DNA from: Alphaproteobacteria bacterium
GTDB lineage: Bacteria > Pseudomonadota > Alphaproteobacteria > GCA-2731375
DNA: 64,000 bases
Assembly: GCA_965232515.1 (NCBI GenBank)
Contig: CBDDPY010000002.1
Span: 4,256,001-4,320,000 of the forward strand
Direction of reading: 5' to 3'
Shown: in pieces, positions 39,277-45,265 of the stretch
Layout of the letters: each line of letters starts with the position of its first letter
Numbering within the stretch: position 1 is the stretch's first letter
Program-made: the position numbers and the translations under genes
The notes under the pieces: generated by a model
Database searches by the model: none
What the model saw: only the letters and a program-made list of their open reading frames with translations
What the model was told of the DNA's origin: nothing

Positions 39277-40710
39277 TTGGTCGCTCGCGACCTGACGCCG
39301 TTCTTCTATCCCAAGAGCGTCGCGGTCGTCGGCGCCGGCGAACGGCCGGGCAGCTCCGGCGGCGCGGTCTGCCAGAACCTCGATATCAGCGGCTATGCCG
39401 GCGCTGTGGTGCCGGTGAACCCGAAGGGCGGCACGATCTTCGGCAACGAAGCGCGGACCAGCCTGCGCGAGTTGGAGCAACCCGCCGACCTGGCGGTGAT
39501 CGTGATCCGGCCGGATTTGATTCCAGGCGCCGTGCGCGAGGCGGCCGAGACCGGGCACAGGAACCTGCTGATCCTGCCGGGTGGATTCGCCGAGGCCGGG
39601 GCCGAGGGCGAGGCCCGCGACGCCGAGGTCCGGGCGGTCGCCGCCGAGGCCGGCGTCACCATCGCCGGGCCCAACTGCGCCGGCATCATCCACCTGACCG
39701 ACGAGAGCCGGTTCGGCGCCACGTTCCTGCGCGACATGCCGCCCGGCGGCGGCATCGCCTTCATCTCGCAGTCCGGCGCGCTGGCGGAGGAAGCCATCGC
39801 CGCGGCCAACGACCGCGCCCTCGCGCTCGGTACCGTGGTCTCGGTCGGCAACGCCATGCATCTCGGCGTCGAGGACTATCTGGAGTTCCTGGGCGAGCAG
39901 GACCGCTGCACCTGCGTTTTGCTCTATGTCGAATCCATCGAGGACCCGGCCCGGTTCCGCGACATCGCCCGCCGCGTCGCGGCGAAAAAGCCGGTGGTGA
40001 TGTTCATGGCGGGCGGCACCGGGCCCGGCGGGCCGGCCGCCCGCGCGCACACCGGCGCGGTGATCAACGACGCCGAGACCATTGCGGCCTTCGCCGCCGA
40101 CTGCTGCGCCGTGCAGGCGACGTCGCTGCGCCGGCTGCTGCTGGCAGCGAAAGCCTTCGGCGCGCATCCGCAAGGCATCGGCAAGCGGGCGCTGATCCTG
40201 TCGAACTCGGGCGGACCGGGGGTGATCTGCACCGACCGGGCGGCGCGCGAGGGCCTGGACCTGCCGCCACTGCCGCCGGCGATGGCGCAAGCCATGCACG
40301 CCGAGCTACCGCCGGAGGCGTCGGTGGCCAACCCCATCGATCTGCTGGCGGACGCGCGCGAGGACCGTTTCGGCCTGACGCTCGACCTCGCCATCAAGCA
40401 TGGGCCGAGCACGTTCGATGCCATCCTGATGATCCACGTGGTGCCGTTCATGGTCGACGCCGGCCCGGTGATCGAGCGCCTCGCCGCCGATGTCGGCAAA
40501 TCGCCGCTGGCGGTGTTCCATTCGATGATGGGCACGCTGCCGGGCAAGGCCGAATGGTTCGCGGCCATGGAAGCCGCCGGCGTGCCCATGTTCAACGACG
40601 TCGAGGAAATGGCCGAGGCCGCCGGCATGCTGGCGCAATACCCCGACCTGAAAGCGCGCGCCGCCGCGCCCCCGGAAGGCGTTCTCGGCTTGAAAGGCCG
40701 CGGCGGCTGA
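39277..40710 (+). CDS. Acyl-CoA synthetase (NDP-forming) alpha-type / CoA-binding protein
   Basis: PKSVAVVGA, GPNCAG, SQSGAL, AHTGA, SNSGGPG, NPIDL. Confidence 0.88.
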   Translation: MVARDLTPFFYPKSVAVVGAGERPGSSGGAVCQNLDISGYAGAVVPVNPKGGTIFGNEARTSLRELEQPADLAVIVIRPDLIPGAVREAAETGHRNLLILPGGFAEAGAEGEARDAEVRAVAAEAGVTIAGPNCAGIIHLTDESRFGATFLRDMPPGGGIAFISQSGALAEEAIAAANDRALALGTVVSVGNAMHLGVEDYLEFLGEQDRCTCVLLYVESIEDPARFRDIARRVAAKKPVVMFMAGGTGPGGPAARAHTGAVINDAETIAAFAADCCAVQATSLRRLLLAAKAFGAHPQGIGKRALILSNSGGPGVICTDRAAREGLDLPPLPPAMAQAMHAELPPEASVANPIDLLADAREDRFGLTLDLAIKHGPSTFDAILMIHVVPFMVDAGPVIERLAADVGKSPLAVFHSMMGTLPGKAEWFAAMEAAGVPMFNDVEEMAEAAGMLAQYPDLKARAAAPPEGVLGLKGRGG

Positions 40711-40720
40711 TACGCATTGG

Positions 40721-40841
40721 CCGATGGCCGCGCTTCGAGACGCGCCGTTGGCGCTCCTCAGCGTGAGGCTGGAGCTCGATATCAGTTCCTTGCCTTACGC
40801 TGAGGAGGTCCCGAAGGGACCGTCTCGAAGCGCGCCATCGG
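40721..40841. repeat. Palindromic intergenic repeat (CTTCGAGACG...CTCAG family)
   Basis: CGCTTCGAGACG...CTCCTCAGCGTGAGG / CCTTACGCTGAGGAG...CGTCTCGAAGCG between convergent genes. Confidence 0.85.
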
Positions 40842-40842
40842 G

Positions 40843-42084
40843 TCAGCCCTTCACGCAGACCACCTGCTTCAGCGTGTGGACCACGTCGACCAGGTCGGTC
40901 TGGGCGGCCATGACGGCGTCGATGTCCTTGTAGGCCATCGGCGTCTCGTCGATGACACCCGTGTCCTTGCGGCATTCGACGCCCTCGGTGGCGGCGATGT
41001 GGTCCGCCTCCGTGAAGCGCCGCTTGGCCTCGGCCCGCGACATGGCGCGGCCGGCCCCGTGCGAGCACGACAGGAAGGCATCCGCGTTGCCCTTGCCGCG
41101 CACGATGTAGGACCGCACCCCCATGCTGCCCGGAATGATGCCGAGCTCGCCGTCGCCGGCGCGCACGGCCCCCTTGCGGGTGACCCAGACCCGGGCGCCG
41201 AAATGTTCCTCGCGGGCGACGTAGTTGTGGTGACAGTTGACCGCCACCTCGCCCACGCGGAAGTCCGTGAACGTCTCGGCCATGACCTCGAGGATCCGGG
41301 CCATCATGCATTCGCGGTTCGCCCGCGCGAAGGCCTGGGCCCAGCCGACCGCCTTGACGTAGTCGTTGAAGCCCTCGGTGCCCTCCGGCAGGTAGGCGAG
41401 ATCGGCGTCCGGCAGCCGGATGAACCAGCGCTCCATCTCGCGCTTGGCGCGCTCGATGAAATAGCTGCCGATGCGGTTGCCGATGCCGCGCGAGCCCGAG
41501 TGCAGCATCACCCACACCCGATCCGCTTGGTCGAGGCAGACCTCGACGAAGTGGTTGCCGGTGCCGAGCGTGCCCAGGTGATGCACGCTGTTGGCCTTGG
41601 CGAGCTTCGGGTGCTTCTCGGTTAGCGCCTTGAGCCCGGTCTCGAGCGTACCGTCGCGGTAAGGCGTGTCGCGCCATGCCGAGGCCACAACATCCGGCAC
41701 ATCGGTCCAGGCGCCGGCGTCGCGGCGGCGGTCACCCTTGCCGGTACGGCCATGCGGCACCGCGGCCTCGATGCCCGCGCGCAGGTCCGACAGGCTGTCG
41801 GGCAGGGCCTGCGAGGTCAGGCTGGTCTGCACCGCCATCATGCCGCAGCCGATGTCGACGCCGACCGCGGCCGGGATGATCGCGGCCTTGAGCGGGATCA
41901 CGCTACCGACGGTGGCGCCCATGCCCCAGTGCACGTCCGGCATCGCGGCGACATGCTTGTGCACGAACGGCAGGCTGGCAACGTTGCGGAGCTGCTTCAG
42001 CGCCGCATCTTCCACCGGCACGCCCTTGGTCCAGGCCTTGATCGGCGCGCCGCCTTCGGTCTCGATGTACTCGTACCCACTCAT
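40843..42084 (-). CDS. rtcB: RNA ligase RtcB
   Basis: MPDVH, DIGCGM, GNHFVE, HSGSRG, HHNY, RKGA, PGSMG, SHGAGR, DETPMAYK. Confidence 0.97.
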   Translation of the reverse strand: MSGYEYIETEGGAPIKAWTKGVPVEDAALKQLRNVASLPFVHKHVAAMPDVHWGMGATVGSVIPLKAAIIPAAVGVDIGCGMMAVQTSLTSQALPDSLSDLRAGIEAAVPHGRTGKGDRRRDAGAWTDVPDVVASAWRDTPYRDGTLETGLKALTEKHPKLAKANSVHHLGTLGTGNHFVEVCLDQADRVWVMLHSGSRGIGNRIGSYFIERAKREMERWFIRLPDADLAYLPEGTEGFNDYVKAVGWAQAFARANRECMMARILEVMAETFTDFRVGEVAVNCHHNYVAREEHFGARVWVTRKGAVRAGDGELGIIPGSMGVRSYIVRGKGNADAFLSCSHGAGRAMSRAEAKRRFTEADHIAATEGVECRKDTGVIDETPMAYKDIDAVMAAQTDLVDVVHTLKQVVCVKG

Positions 42085-42138
42085 TGTTCCTCTCCTCAGA
42101 TGCGGGTCCCAAGATTGCGCCGCCCATGTCGGGTCATC

Positions 42139-42172
42139 AAAAAACCCCTCCGGAGCGGGTCTCGGGAGGGGT
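42139..42172 (-). terminator. Intrinsic terminator in the rtcB leader (attenuator)
   Basis: Minus strand ACCCCTCC-cgagacccgctcc-GGAGGGGT followed by a T run, 54 nt upstream of the rtcB ATG. Confidence 0.85.
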
Positions 42173-42204
42173 CGCGGTGTGCTTGGCTGTGTTGCCTTGT
42201 CGGC

Positions 42205-42318
42205 TTAAGCGATGCGCACGCCCTCCTGGTCCGTGGCGGACAGTGTCCGCCCGGAATTCTTGCTGTTGGCGGCCGGGTAAGCCGCGACCGCTATCGTTGA
42301 GGTTTCTGAACTACGCAT
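42205..42318 (-). CDS. Putative rtcB leader peptide (37 aa)
   Basis: MRSSETSTIAVAAYPAANSKNSGRTLSATDQEGVRIA*, ending 32 nt before the terminator; its last codons are complementary to the terminator 5' arm. Confidence 0.6.
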   Translation of the reverse strand: MRSSETSTIAVAAYPAANSKNSGRTLSATDQEGVRIA

Positions 42319-42433
42319 CGTTCCGCTCGCTTCGTGCCCGAGGCCGTTGCCTCGAAGCGGCTCTCGGAGGTCGAGGGTGATACAGCCTTCGGTCGCGCCG
42401 GTCAAGGTTTATGCCCGCAAAGCCGCTGTTCCG

Positions 42434-42502
42434 CGTCATGCTGGCGAAGGCCAGCATCCACGGCAGACTCGGAAATGGATCCTGGCCTGCGCCAGCATGA
42501 CG
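42434..42502. repeat. REP-like palindromic doublet (GTCAT...ATCCA family)
   Basis: CGTCATGCTGGCGAAGGCCAGCATCCA ... TGGATCCTGGCCTGCGCCAGCATGACG. Confidence 0.8.
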
Positions 42503-42521
42503 GCAGACGTGGAAGCTGCCG

Positions 42522-43481
42522 CTACTCGAAACTGAAGCCCATGGTGCGGCAGTGGTAGTAGAGGCCGCCGTCCTGGACGATGAGGCAGAGCATGCGCTCG
42601 GCGCCATCGTTGTGGTGCGAGTGCATTTCGGCCGGCGGCGTCACCATGACGGCGTTCTCGGCCCAGTCGATGCGCTGGCCGTCGATCACCGAATAGCAGT
42701 CGCGGCCCTGCACCGAGAGGGTGACGGCCACTGAGTTATGCCGGTGCGGCGTCTGCGCGTCGCCGGACGGCAGCGAGTTCATGGCGAGCGTCAACGTCGG
42801 CGTGATGTTGCGGACATCGGCCAACTTGTCGCTCGAAAAAATCAGCGCGTAGCCCGGCCGCGGCACGACATGCTCGAGCTCGGCATAGACGCGGTCGAAC
42901 TGCTGCGCGATCTCGGCCGCGGGATAGTGCACGGCCTGGACCAGCGCCTCGTCGGCCTTGGGCGGCTGAAAACGCTCGAAGGCGAGCTCGGGCTCGTTGG
43001 TGATCAGCCAGAGAATGCTGTCGGTATCGCCCGCGGTATGCACGCTTTCGTGTCCGCCCGGCAGTGAGAAGACGTCGCCTTCCGCCCAGTCGATGCGCTC
43101 AGCCCCATTCTCGGTATGGCCGGCGCCGGCGCAAACGTAATAGAGCTCGCCGCTAGCGATCAGGTTCGTCGACAGCGTCTCGCCCGCGCGGATGCGGACG
43201 TAGCGCGTCAGGATCAGCGGCGTCGTCGCCGGCGCGTCGAGGCCCATGGCGGCGCTGAGGTCGAGATCGATCAGGCCGGTCGGCGTATCGGCGGCGAAGG
43301 CCCGATCGCGCTCGGCCAGGAACTGGTGCTTCGGCACCGGCGGCTTCTTGATGTTGAAGGCGTTGCCGGAATGGAAGAACCGCGCCCGCCGCTGCTGCGG
43401 CGTCGCCGCGCCGTCGGCCGGCACGCCGTCGAAGCTATCCGTCCCGGTCTCGACCGCCGCCGTTTTCGCGCTCGCCATCAC
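42522..43481 (-). CDS. Bicupin protein (gentisate dioxygenase-like superfamily)
   Basis: PHRHNSVAVTL...TPPAEMHSHHN metal-binding cupin in the C-terminal half. Confidence 0.75.
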   Translation of the reverse strand: MMASAKTAAVETGTDSFDGVPADGAATPQQRRARFFHSGNAFNIKKPPVPKHQFLAERDRAFAADTPTGLIDLDLSAAMGLDAPATTPLILTRYVRIRAGETLSTNLIASGELYYVCAGAGHTENGAERIDWAEGDVFSLPGGHESVHTAGDTDSILWLITNEPELAFERFQPPKADEALVQAVHYPAAEIAQQFDRVYAELEHVVPRPGYALIFSSDKLADVRNITPTLTLAMNSLPSGDAQTPHRHNSVAVTLSVQGRDCYSVIDGQRIDWAENAVMVTPPAEMHSHHNDGAERMLCLIVQDGGLYYHCRTMGFSFE

Positions 43482-43530
43482 GTCCTCCCCACGCCGTTGC
43501 CTGCGACGATCTTACACGAAAACCAAGTCG

Positions 43531-43638
43531 GCCGGCTTCGAGACGCCGGCTACGCCGGCTCCTCAGCCTGAGGTGGAGGAGATTGAAAACGAGAATGCCT
43601 CAGCCTGAGGAGGCCCGAAGGGCCGTCTCGAAGGCGGC
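43531..43638. repeat. Palindromic intergenic repeat (CTTCGAGACG...CTCAG family), second copy
   Basis: CTTCGAGACG...CTCCTCAGCCTGAGG / CCTCAGCCTGAGGAG...CGTCTCGAAG. Confidence 0.85.
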
Positions 43639-43641
43639 AGG

Positions 43642-44049
43642 TCAGGACTTGGGCGGCAGGACGAGTTGGGTTTGCGTGACGAGCGCGGCGAGCTTGCCGG
43701 CTTCGGTGGTGATGCGGGTCTGCCAGACCATGGTGGTGCGGCCGCGATGCACGGGCGTGGTCTCGGCCGTGAGCGTGGTGCCGACGGGCGCGGCGGCCAC
43801 AAAGTTGGTCTTGCTTTCGATGGTCGTGGTGCCGGCGCCCTGGGGCAGGTTCAGGAACGTGGCGACGCCGCCGAGCGTATCGGCGAACGCCATCAGCGCG
43901 CCGCCATGCGCGACGGCCGGACGAGTGCAGAGATCGTCGCGGACCGGCAGTTCGGCAACGATGCGCTCGGGCGTCGCTTCCGTCAGACGAATACCCATCA
44001 GCTTGCCGAACGGCAGCATGTTCTCGTTGAGCATGTCGAGCTGGTCCAT
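43642..44049 (-). CDS. PaaI family thioesterase
   Basis: HGGALMAFADTLGG, TTTIESKTNF, HRGRTTMVW. Confidence 0.9.
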   Translation of the reverse strand: MDQLDMLNENMLPFGKLMGIRLTEATPERIVAELPVRDDLCTRPAVAHGGALMAFADTLGGVATFLNLPQGAGTTTIESKTNFVAAAPVGTTLTAETTPVHRGRTTMVWQTRITTEAGKLAALVTQTQLVLPPKS

Positions 44050-44287
44050 GTCATGTCCTCCGATCCGACGCGTTGGCTTCGCGCCATACTGACAGCGAGC
44101 ATCGTCGGTTCAATTACGTCCGAGGTAGGCGCGGACGGCAAGACAGCATTCACGGCAACTTGCGATGGGCGCCGGACTGCGCGAGCATTGATCCCGGCGA
44201 AATCGCCAGCTCGGCGAATCCCTTAGAGAACCGAATGACAAATGGCCGACGCACCGATGGCCGAAATGGAAGGGAGGTCCAGACATT

Positions 44288-45265
44288 ATGCCCATCAAAC
44301 TGACCCGGCGGGGCTTTAGCGGCGGAATGGCAGCGACAGTGGCGGCGGCGGGGCTGCCACGGCAAGCGGACGCCGCGGTGACGTTCAAATATGCCAACGC
44401 CTCGAACGAGCAGAACCTGAGCAATCAGTTCGCCGCCATGTTCCTGAAGGAGGTGGAGAAGCGCACGAACGGCGAGGTCAAGACGCAAATCCTCTACAAC
44501 ATGGGCGGCGAGAAATCGATCCTCGAAGGCGTGTCGCTGGGCACGCTCGACATGGCCGTGGTCGGTTATTCGGGCCTGCGCGAGTTCGACGTCTTCTACA
44601 CGCCCTATCTGCTGCGCGACATCCCGCACGGCGTCGAGGTGATGAAGGGGCCGATCGGCGAGCGTGCGGCGAAGGCGATGAAGGACCGCTACGATGTGCG
44701 CCTCGTCGGCGTCGGTTCGACGGGGCCATTCCTGCTCGGCATCAAGGAGCCGGCCGGGTCCTGGGCCGACCTGAAGGACCGCAAGATCCGCGTGCCGCAG
44801 TTCGAAGCCTATCTGGAAGCCATCGCGGCGCTGGACGCGCGGCCGACGCCGATCCCGTTCAACGAGGTCTATCTGGCCCTGCAGCAGGGGGTCGTCGAGG
44901 GGTTGGTGACGATCCTCAACGTCATGCTGGCGAACAAGTTCGTCGAGGTCTGCAAATACGTTGTCGCCAACGATTTCGGCGTCGGCCTGGACAAGTTCGT
45001 GGTCTCGGAGCGGAGCTGGAGCCGCATGACGCCGGCGCAGCAGCAGATCTTCCAGGATACCTATGACGAGATGATGCCGACCCACTTCGTCCAGCGGGCG
45101 ATCGACCAGGCCGCGCTGGACTTCAAGAAGTGGGAAGAGCTGAACGGCGCCGGCACCGTGCTGCGTCTCGACGCGGAACAGCTCCAGCGCACCATGGAGC
45201 CGGTCGGCCGCAAGCTGGCCGACGACATCTACGGGCCCGGCGCCTACGACCTGTTCCAGGCCTGA
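44288..45265 (+). CDS. dctP: TRAP transporter substrate-binding protein DctP
   Basis: Tat signal TRRGF; DLKDRKIRVP, PIPFNEVYLALQQGVVEG. Confidence 0.9.
   Translation: MPIKLTRRGFSGGMAATVAAAGLPRQADAAVTFKYANASNEQNLSNQFAAMFLKEVEKRTNGEVKTQILYNMGGEKSILEGVSLGTLDMAVVGYSGLREFDVFYTPYLLRDIPHGVEVMKGPIGERAAKAMKDRYDVRLVGVGSTGPFLLGIKEPAGSWADLKDRKIRVPQFEAYLEAIAALDARPTPIPFNEVYLALQQGVVEGLVTILNVMLANKFVEVCKYVVANDFGVGLDKFVVSERSWSRMTPAQQQIFQDTYDEMMPTHFVQRAIDQAALDFKKWEELNGAGTVLRLDAEQLQRTMEPVGRKLADDIYGPGAYDLFQA

Follow-up and report, generated by a model that had tools for sequence, protein, structure and literature searches.

In the 64,000-nt window of an Alphaproteobacteria bacterium genome (the whole stretch analyzed, from assembly GCA_965232515.1), a stand-alone rtcB gene, coding for an RNA repair ligase, is preceded by a leader that we read as a ribosome-dependent leader-peptide transcription attenuator, which would turn rtcB on when translation of the leader lags. 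Judging from the sequence and from RNA modeling, we give this reading a probability of about 0.7. The leader belongs to a distinct, conserved family found before canonical rtcB, and before a MatE pump gene, in Alphaproteobacteria, and sequence comparison and modeled folding support its interpretation as an attenuator.

All coordinates are positions in the window, and the leader and rtcB lie entirely on the minus strand. The initial annotation of this DNA, made from its letters alone, had described an upstream open reading frame (uORF), a 32-nt gap, a strong terminator, the Shine-Dalgarno (SD) sequence of rtcB and two complementary strands, and all of these proved exact base for base. The elements of the leader are as follows.

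42405-42377, minus strand: promoter-like site, TTGACC (42405-42400), a 17-nt spacer and TATCAC (42382-42377)
42367-42338, minus strand: hairpin of the 5' untranslated region (5' UTR), CCGAG..CUCGG enclosing GCCG..CGGC, seen in folds
42318-42205, minus strand: uORF, ATG at 42318, 37 sense codons, TAA at 42207-42205
42291-42269, minus strand: hairpin P0 within the uORF, GCGGUCG..CGGCCGC, in minimum free energy (MFE) folds
42255-42230, minus strand: hairpin P1 within the uORF, UCCGGGCGGAC..GUCCGCCACGGA, counterpart of the mid-uORF hairpin of the family
42226-42217, minus strand: antiterminator 5' strand (region 2), GGAGGGCGUG, 10-21 nt upstream of the stop codon
42204-42194, minus strand: small post-stop hairpin, GCC-GACAA-GGC, immediately 3' of the uORF stop
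42176-42165, minus strand: antiterminator 3' strand (region 3), CGCGACCCCUCC, overlapping the terminator 5' arm
42172-42139, minus strand: intrinsic terminator, 8-bp and 3-bp stems, U6 tract, hairpin of about -20.9 kcal/mol
42097-40843, minus strand: rtcB with its SD, GAGGAGAGG at 42097-42089; coding sequence 42084-40843, 413 aa

We propose that a constitutive-looking promoter would give a transcript of about 235 nt carrying the 37-codon uORF, whose G-rich end (region 2, GGAGGGCGUG) may pair with the terminator's C-rich 5' arm (region 3, CGCGACCCCUCC). Formed ahead of the synthesis of the 3' arm (region 4), this 2:3 duplex would let the polymerase read into rtcB. A ribosome moving as fast as the polymerase would, on arriving at the final codons or the stop, cover region 2 with its footprint; with region 2 covered, regions 3 and 4 would fold and transcription would terminate 55 nt short of rtcB. 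Were the ribosome to fall behind or stall within the initial two thirds of the frame, region 2 would stay free and rtcB would be transcribed. That the uORF is translated, which way the switch works in vivo and what the physiological signal is are our inferences. Since the peptide is not conserved and has no single-codon run, the cue would be general slowness or arrest of translation rather than one amino acid, and damaged tRNA (transfer RNA) or rRNA (ribosomal RNA), ribosome-targeting antibiotics and starvation are the candidates.

The energetics of the window leader fit such a switch. The terminator hairpin, ACCCCUCC-C-GAG-ACCCG-CUC-C-GGAGGGGU followed by six U, is present in the MFE structure of both folds, and its motif occurs only once in the genome. 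A simple terminator scan flagged the site (1 found against 0.5 expected), and the 301-nt leader was more stable than 100 of 100 shuffles (z -3.69). The mutually exclusive antiterminator of the initial annotation was borne out: the GGAGGGCGUG/CGCGACCCCUCC duplex has -18.9 kcal/mol compared with -20.9 for the terminator hairpin, and equal or better pairing with the terminator 5' arm was found in just 1.6% of 1138 local 36-nt windows. When either state was forced on the whole leader, the folds reached -99.8 kcal/mol for the terminator and -94.9 kcal/mol for the antiterminator. The leader is thus an RNA with two states, and whichever helix forms first can decide between them. By eye, an alternative pairing GGUCGCGG/CCGCGACC was also spotted; it competes with hairpin P0 and is not claimed.

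To model the ribosome, we masked 28 nt around each codon placed in the A site and folded the nascent transcript as far as the terminator loop. This was done for 22 leaders, consisting of the window, a same-genus genome (G001) and 20 of the best 80 RtcB loci among 185,579 species genomes. With the ribosome in the first half of the frame, the 5' arm was sequestered in silico (P 0.58-1.0) in 21/22 leaders, and with the ribosome on the last four codons or the stop, sequestration dropped by at least 0.2 in 17/22. For the window, it went from 0.82 to 0.41 with the ribosome at the frame end, in line with the earlier suggestion that a ribosome at the leader end masks region 2 and favors termination.

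These folds also bear on a pyrBI-like switch of reversed polarity, in which a closely coupled ribosome would prevent termination and active translation would turn rtcB on. Leaders that combine a uORF and a terminator with such polarity do exist. Here, however, masking the stop region favors the terminator, and in each of the 36 leaders of the enlarged set described below, 25-39 nt separate the end of the uORF from the 5' arm, beyond the reach of the footprint. Because the uORF ends short of the terminator and never extends into it, a pyrBI-type blockade is excluded, and we regard the reversed polarity in general as very improbable.

The predicted state of the untranslated RNA is not the same throughout the family. 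In silico, it favors the antiterminator in the window (0.83) and in G001 (0.79). In six of the 22 leaders (L008, L009, L010, L014, L017, L035), the untranslated RNA is predicted to form a long rod in which early codons pair with region 2 while the terminator stays unobstructed, which is the classical 1:2/3:4 default. The initial annotation had held that absent translation means read-through. This stood for the window type and did not stand for the whole family, in which the six rods are predicted to terminate and one leader (L005) has no predicted antiterminator.

Comparison with G001 showed that the leader is kept as a unit. The two leaders are 83% identical, and the similarity begins exactly at the promoter block, the DNA further upstream being unrelated. 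The block 42417-42379 is the same in both save one spacer base. TGTATC at 42384-42379 also lies within the promoter-like site, and a sigma-70 scan did not call the site because its -10 lacks the final T. We predict a transcription start near 42372, which would leave a 5' UTR of about 54 nt that contains the hairpin listed above. The 5'-terminal CCUCC (42369-42365) is able to pair with GGAGG at the uORF end; it is not claimed as an anti-antiterminator of the window, and G001 lacks CCUCC.

Despite 20 substitutions (6/9/5 over codon positions 1/2/3), the G001 uORF keeps its start, stop and length, and 11 of 37 residues differ. Three hairpins stay paired through these changes. The 5'-UTR hairpin has both sides changed in G001 (CCGGG..CCCGG, GCCGGUG..CACCGGU), P0 reads GCGAUCG..CGAUCGC with two pairs changed, and P1 too has changes on both sides. 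The terminators of the two genomes are identical. The small hairpin after the stop was found in G001 and in Caulobacterales-type leaders as well. A DNA search with the leader in 61 related genomes matched only G001, apart from two spurious matches of 24-30 nt.

The layout is not confined to this genus. It was present upstream of rtcB in 20 of the best 80 RtcB loci, in records that include Caulobacter, Brevundimonas, Hyphomonas, Rhodospirillales and other Alphaproteobacteria. Together with 14 further leaders from metagenome contigs and sampled genomes (12 passing an automatic layout test, L096 and L173 recognized by eye only), 36 leaders from at least 11 sequence lineages were collected. All 36 have the order promoter, uORF, antiterminator, terminator, with the terminator kept, and all have an SD, an ATG or GTG, a frame of 25-42 codons (28-42 codons in leaders from the best 80 loci) and a stop 25-39 nt before the terminator. 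In the leaders from the best 80 loci, the 5' part has a -10-like GCTATC, a short 5' UTR that opens with a C-rich stretch, and a purine-rich SD. It is followed by a mid-frame hairpin, a GCGYGCG-GGAGGGG block near the frame end, the stop, a small hairpin and a terminator of the form CCCCUCC...GGAGGGG-U-rich. The Caulobacterales-type leaders L007-L017, L020, L035 and L068 have a third GGAGGGG-like copy 30-50 nt past the terminator and before the rtcB SD, which the window lacks. In the Hyphomonadaceae-type locus L030 (2210-2488; also in L116), an open reading frame (ORF) of 92 aa without a Pfam family lies between the leader terminator and rtcB and would therefore be co-regulated with it.

The mid-frame hairpin differs in sequence by lineage, with CUCGACC/GGUCGAG, UCCGACC/GGUCGGA, UGGACC/GGUCCA, CGCCGC/GCGGCG and CAUCGC/GCGAUG, and in the window GGCGGAC/GUCCGCC. 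In the model-fitted alignment A4, 7/7 pairs of the P1 helix are changed on both sides; A4 leans towards the model and includes reverse-strand terminator rows, and only its P1 helix is used as support. RNAalifold on an alignment of 18 sequences gave the terminator only, and column-wise covariation in a MAFFT alignment was weak for P1 and for the antiterminator. We attribute the weak column counts to MAFFT, which misaligns hairpins of differing sequence, and to the CCCCUCC, which hardly varies.

We then examined how specific the leader is for rtcB. A covariance model of 18 Caulobacterales-type leaders, with the window excluded, gave the window leader (42309-42135) as its best match among 59 sources (402 kb), at an E of 0.0033 that comes mostly from the terminator. 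In 5/5 whole genomes, the model found exactly one forward copy per genome, always the rtcB leader. In 151 evenly drawn genomes of the class, one strong match (E 6e-14) was found directly upstream of an RtcB gene, along with weak matches (E 3e-4 to 8e-4) that fall within or next to unrelated genes in two genomes. The automatic layout test was positive in 22 of 150 windows upstream of rtcB versus 1 of 2931 control windows from the same loci, and the sole control window to score positive holds a same-build leader before a MatE efflux gene. A looser pattern of the GGAGGGG/CCCCUCC/GGAGGGG triad matched 8 of 401 genomes, one of them the window's own. Two of the seven non-self matches are upstream of rtcB (L186, confirmed by Pfam, and L185, judged by its likeness to L186); the other five were rejected as unrelated palindromic repeats or coding DNA. 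Rfam returned no family at gathering score for the leaders in L005, L006, L008, L017 and L019, and none for the window leader.

With these counts, two readings that separate the leader from the control of rtcB can be weighed. One is that the terminator merely insulates rtcB from upstream transcription and that the uORF and the antiterminator pairing are chance. The gene upstream of the leader, which is cupin-type dioxygenase-like, does lie on the same strand, and GC-rich DNA yields many open frames as well as G-rich/C-rich complements. However, a palindrome of the repetitive extragenic palindromic (REP)-like kind and the conserved promoter separate this gene from the leader, the layout occurs in at least 11 lineages with different upstream genes, and its control rate is 1/2931. 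We thus hold insulation to be scarcely credible. The other is that the unit from promoter to terminator is an independent gene for a trans-acting small RNA (sRNA), with rtcB transcribed from a separate promoter within the 55 nt that follow the terminator. The unit is indeed complete, with a promoter and a strong terminator, an sRNA derived from an attenuator (rnTrpL) is reported to act in trans in Sinorhizobium, and a TTGATG-17-CAATCT string follows the terminator in the window. This string is not kept in G001, though, and the unit was found nowhere but immediately upstream of rtcB or MatE, once per genome, at a short terminator-to-rtcB distance in nearly all members. A trans role would also be compatible with one in cis. 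An sRNA gene in place of an attenuator therefore seems improbable to us.

The ribosome-dependent attenuator requires that the uORF be translated, and here the geometry of start and stop is the main evidence. The start codon is a nearly invariant aligned NTG behind the SD, which matches AGGAGG at 4/6 or more positions in 18/22 leaders. In the window, the 37-codon uORF is the 3' part of a 66-codon TTG frame, whose TTG is in the -35 hexamer of the conserved promoter, making the ATG at 42318 the sensible start. Counted from the aligned start, the first in-frame stop falls 27-39 nt before the terminator 5' arm in 22/22 leaders in frame 0, against 0/22 in frame +1 and 4/22 in frame +2, the frame-0 count being partly by construction since the uORFs were picked by stop location. 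The NTG start and the tests with other frames and control windows give support that is independent of this construction. In 22/22, the best-pairing partner of the 5' arm sits at -22 to 0 nt from the stop (-21 to -7 in the window), though stop type and spacing vary. The stop codons are TAG in 12, TGA in 8 and TAA in 2 of the 22 leaders. TAG stops look frequent for GC-rich Alphaproteobacteria; the leaders are kin, and the TAG belongs to a pairing CUAGG stretch. The peptides are unrelated among the roughly 11 lineages, and the absence of a run of one residue, which the initial annotation had seen in the window peptide, extends to all 22.

Alternatively, the leader could be an untranslated cis-regulatory RNA, riboswitch-like or bound by a protein or RNA, in which a ligand or factor sets the switch and the frame is a by-product of GC-rich DNA. 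In its favor, the peptide is unconstrained, a conserved hairpin with compensatory changes lies inside the putative uORF, the leader folds better than shuffles, the antiterminator columns covary weakly and the SD of the window is weak. Against this, a purine-rich SD and an aligned ATG or GTG are kept across lineages, the stop tracks the antiterminator strand within 22 nt in every one of the 22 leaders despite its varied type and distance, and the other frames behave differently. Further, we saw none of the conserved unpaired pockets or junctions that typify ligand binders, and no Rfam family was matched. Taking both sides together, we consider an untranslated regulatory RNA unlikely.

Several observations weigh against the attenuator reading itself. 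Substitutions in seven close pairs of leaders fall as 73/67/52 on codon positions 1/2/3, with no coding signature, and the case for translation therefore comes from start, SD and stop geometry alone; the absent signature fits a sequence-indifferent peptide and a non-coding RNA equally well. Open frames of 30-40 codons are common in GC-rich DNA, and the frame-0 stop count is, as said, partly built in. The SD of the window uORF, GAAGCGAGCGGA, is weak, with -5.2 kcal/mol against the generally known anti-SD motif compared with -9.8 for the rtcB SD. Only in 15 of 22 leaders does the antiterminator duplex rank among the best 5% of background, the other seven being at 0.052-0.36, and L005 has no predicted antiterminator. 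Of the two marks that the initial annotation had named for an alignment of rtcB upstream regions, the uORF-stop spacing was found to be kept (27-39 nt, 22/22), while column-wise covariation of the antiterminator was weak, 62 of 500 shuffles reaching it in the MAFFT alignment. Finally, the homology of the window to the Caulobacterales-type leaders is modest. The window-type lineage is thinly sampled, the closest RtcB in genomes and metagenomes being 74-75% identical. In the metagenome RtcB scan, the best match (L100, 75% identity) has no recognizable leader, so that no window-type alignment is deep enough for covariation.

Transcript data added little. Three raw-read RNA runs labeled as the same species contributed 0 reads to the stretch, and this does not test expression. 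In a fourth run, from a related strain, contigs cover only 41997-42168 and 42298-42549 with a break inside the leader, and are uninformative on ends and levels. Caulobacter vibrioides gave no match in the RtcB search, so its ribosome-profiling data are of no help.

The rtcB product matches Pfam RtcB with an E of 7e-134, and a whole-genome profile search of the 7.39 Mb genome (96% complete, carrying alpha_tmRNA) found one RtcB. The gene stands alone and is monocistronic, because the next gene downstream, which is CoA-ligase-like, is convergent. The terminator is 41 nt from the rtcB SD and 55 nt from the rtcB start. Known controls of rtcB are RtcR with sigma-54, RtcR being an enhancer-binding protein, and co-transcription with Ro and Y RNA; we know of no description of how rtcB is switched on in bacteria without RtcR. 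The initial annotation had seen no rtcR or rtcA nearby and proposed an RtcR-independent mode of control, and the absence holds genome-wide, with 0 matches to RtcR (PF06956) and 0 to RtcA (PF01137) across the 96%-complete genome. Neither a TGGCAC-N5-TTGC motif nor another sigma-54 -24/-12 motif was found in 42085-42521. YrlA Y RNA (RF02553) had no match in 40000-45000 even at E up to 10, and there is no Ro gene.

In the order of the window, RtcB occurs in 4 of 33 genomes, and its loci differ in the control region: G001 has the same leader, L087 has a sigma-54 -24/-12 site and L088 has YrlA Y RNAs. As three control types occur within one order, rtcB moves about together with its control region. 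The sigma-54-type site of L087 lies before rtcB at 1430-1460, and YrlA Y RNAs (RF02553) are directly upstream of rtcB in L055, L074, L076, L077 and L088. A pattern-based classing of rtcB loci undercounts the sigma-54 and Y-RNA loci and left 112 of 160 unclassified, and is not used for frequencies.

Compared with these two arrangements, the window leader is of another kind. RtcR/sigma-54 control of rtcBA, the Escherichia coli type, responds to damage of the translation apparatus and has the same target gene family; the window control, in contrast, would act in cis by RNA and not by an enhancer-binding protein, and RtcR, RtcA and the -24/-12 site are missing. The rsr-YrlA-rtcB operons likewise have a structured RNA directly upstream of rtcB, whereas the window RNA ends in a terminator and carries an ORF, with no YrlA match and no Ro gene.

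The likeness is greater to amino-acid attenuators. As in the trp, his, leu, thr and pheA leaders, four regions could pair as 1:2, 2:3 and 3:4, the ribosome position would choose between them, and the terminator is intrinsic; as in trp, the untranslated transcript is predicted to terminate in 6/22 family leaders. However, the rtcB leaders have no tandem regulatory codons and no conserved peptide, so the defining feature of that class is absent; their target is an RNA repair ligase and not a biosynthetic operon, and no clear anti-antiterminator is kept in the window type. The leaders of vmlR, whiB7 and topAI-yjhQ, so far as the consulted parts of the sources describe them, also use a generic read-out of uORF stalling to switch a stress gene. 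They belong to other organisms, with other sequences and targets, none concerning rtcB in those parts, and some use Rho or translational control instead of an intrinsic terminator.

The closest known system is PA5471.1-armZ of P. aeruginosa; the rtcB leader would work alike and is not a member of it. According to the parts of two papers available to us, the PA5471.1 leader peptide controls armZ (PA5471, an RtcB-like RNA ligase) and prfH (PA5470) by attenuation, complete translation giving the 3:4 terminator and stalling, through ribosome-targeting antibiotics or loss of suhB or of the CCA-adding enzyme, giving read-through (PMC12057347, PMC13041342). As those parts describe it, the two systems share a short leader ORF followed by a segment 3:4 terminator before an RtcB-family gene. 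In contrast to armZ, the window ligase is a canonical RtcB that is not paired with PrfH: it scored 146.9 bits against the PrfH-associated type TIGR03073, below the cut-off of 271.8, and no prfH adjoins rtcB. No role as a MexZ anti-repressor is implied for it either. The rtcB leaders are also longer (28-42 codons) and have conserved internal hairpins and the GGAGGGG/CCCCUCC/GGAGGGG triad, a distinction drawn from the descriptions of the two systems. The rtcB leader would extend the PA5471.1-armZ precedent from an anti-repressor side function to canonical RtcB, which suggests that stall-sensing attenuation is a recurrent, independently evolved control of RtcB-family genes. Our literature search found no leader or uORF described before a canonical bacterial rtcB, papers outside the searched literature not being excluded.

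Leaders of the same build before the MatE gene were found in two metagenome contigs (L157, 2535-2740; L106, 3315-3518), where a second leader lies just downstream of rtcB and ahead of a MatE gene (PF01554, E 5e-23). It has a promoter, a frame of 31-32 codons, a stop 25-27 nt before the terminator and a U-tract, and its terminator is nearly identical to that of the window. L157 also has a window-type leader before its own rtcB. That a drug pump has a leader of this kind agrees with a cue tied to translation inhibition. If the attenuator reading is true, RNA repair would be tied directly to ribosome performance without a protein sensor, through a cis element that several alphaproteobacterial families have kept and that is placed also before a drug efflux pump, and the leader would offer a compact, testable reporter of translation stress in Alphaproteobacteria.

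The leader holds three SD-like GGAGG(GG) copies and an anti-SD-like CCCCUCC, and region 2 is spaced from the last codons as an SD is from the P site, at about 8 nt in the Caulobacterales type and at 8-11 nt in the window. We wondered whether the leader may monitor the 3' end of the ribosome's own 16S rRNA through these sequences, which we rate as a long shot. Were it so, the anti-SD of the terminating ribosome would hold region 2, in competition with region 3 as an anti-SD mimic. Ribosomes with 16S rRNA cut or trimmed near the 3' end, or ribosomes that are uncoupled from the polymerase, would fail to hold region 2, and this failure would induce the very ligase that can reseal rRNA or tRNA. With the MatE copies included, the leaders would then form an alphaproteobacterial family of translation-integrity attenuators.

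A few minor features were noticed around the leaders. No plus-strand ORF spanning the window leader has a Pfam family. The long palindrome at 42431-42504, which separates the dioxygenase-like gene from the leader promoter, belongs to a REP-like repeat dispersed in the genome, with 74 matches when both strands are counted; it is absent at the same place in the same-genus genome G001, and Rfam gave only chance-level microRNA matches there. In L175 (2458-2800), the gene after rtcB looks nucleotidyltransferase-like by eye, and a model match inside it looks spurious. In L017, the rtcB leader is preceded at a distance of about 1.7 kb by an alpha-type transfer-messenger RNA gene (158-521), which is probably a coincidence.

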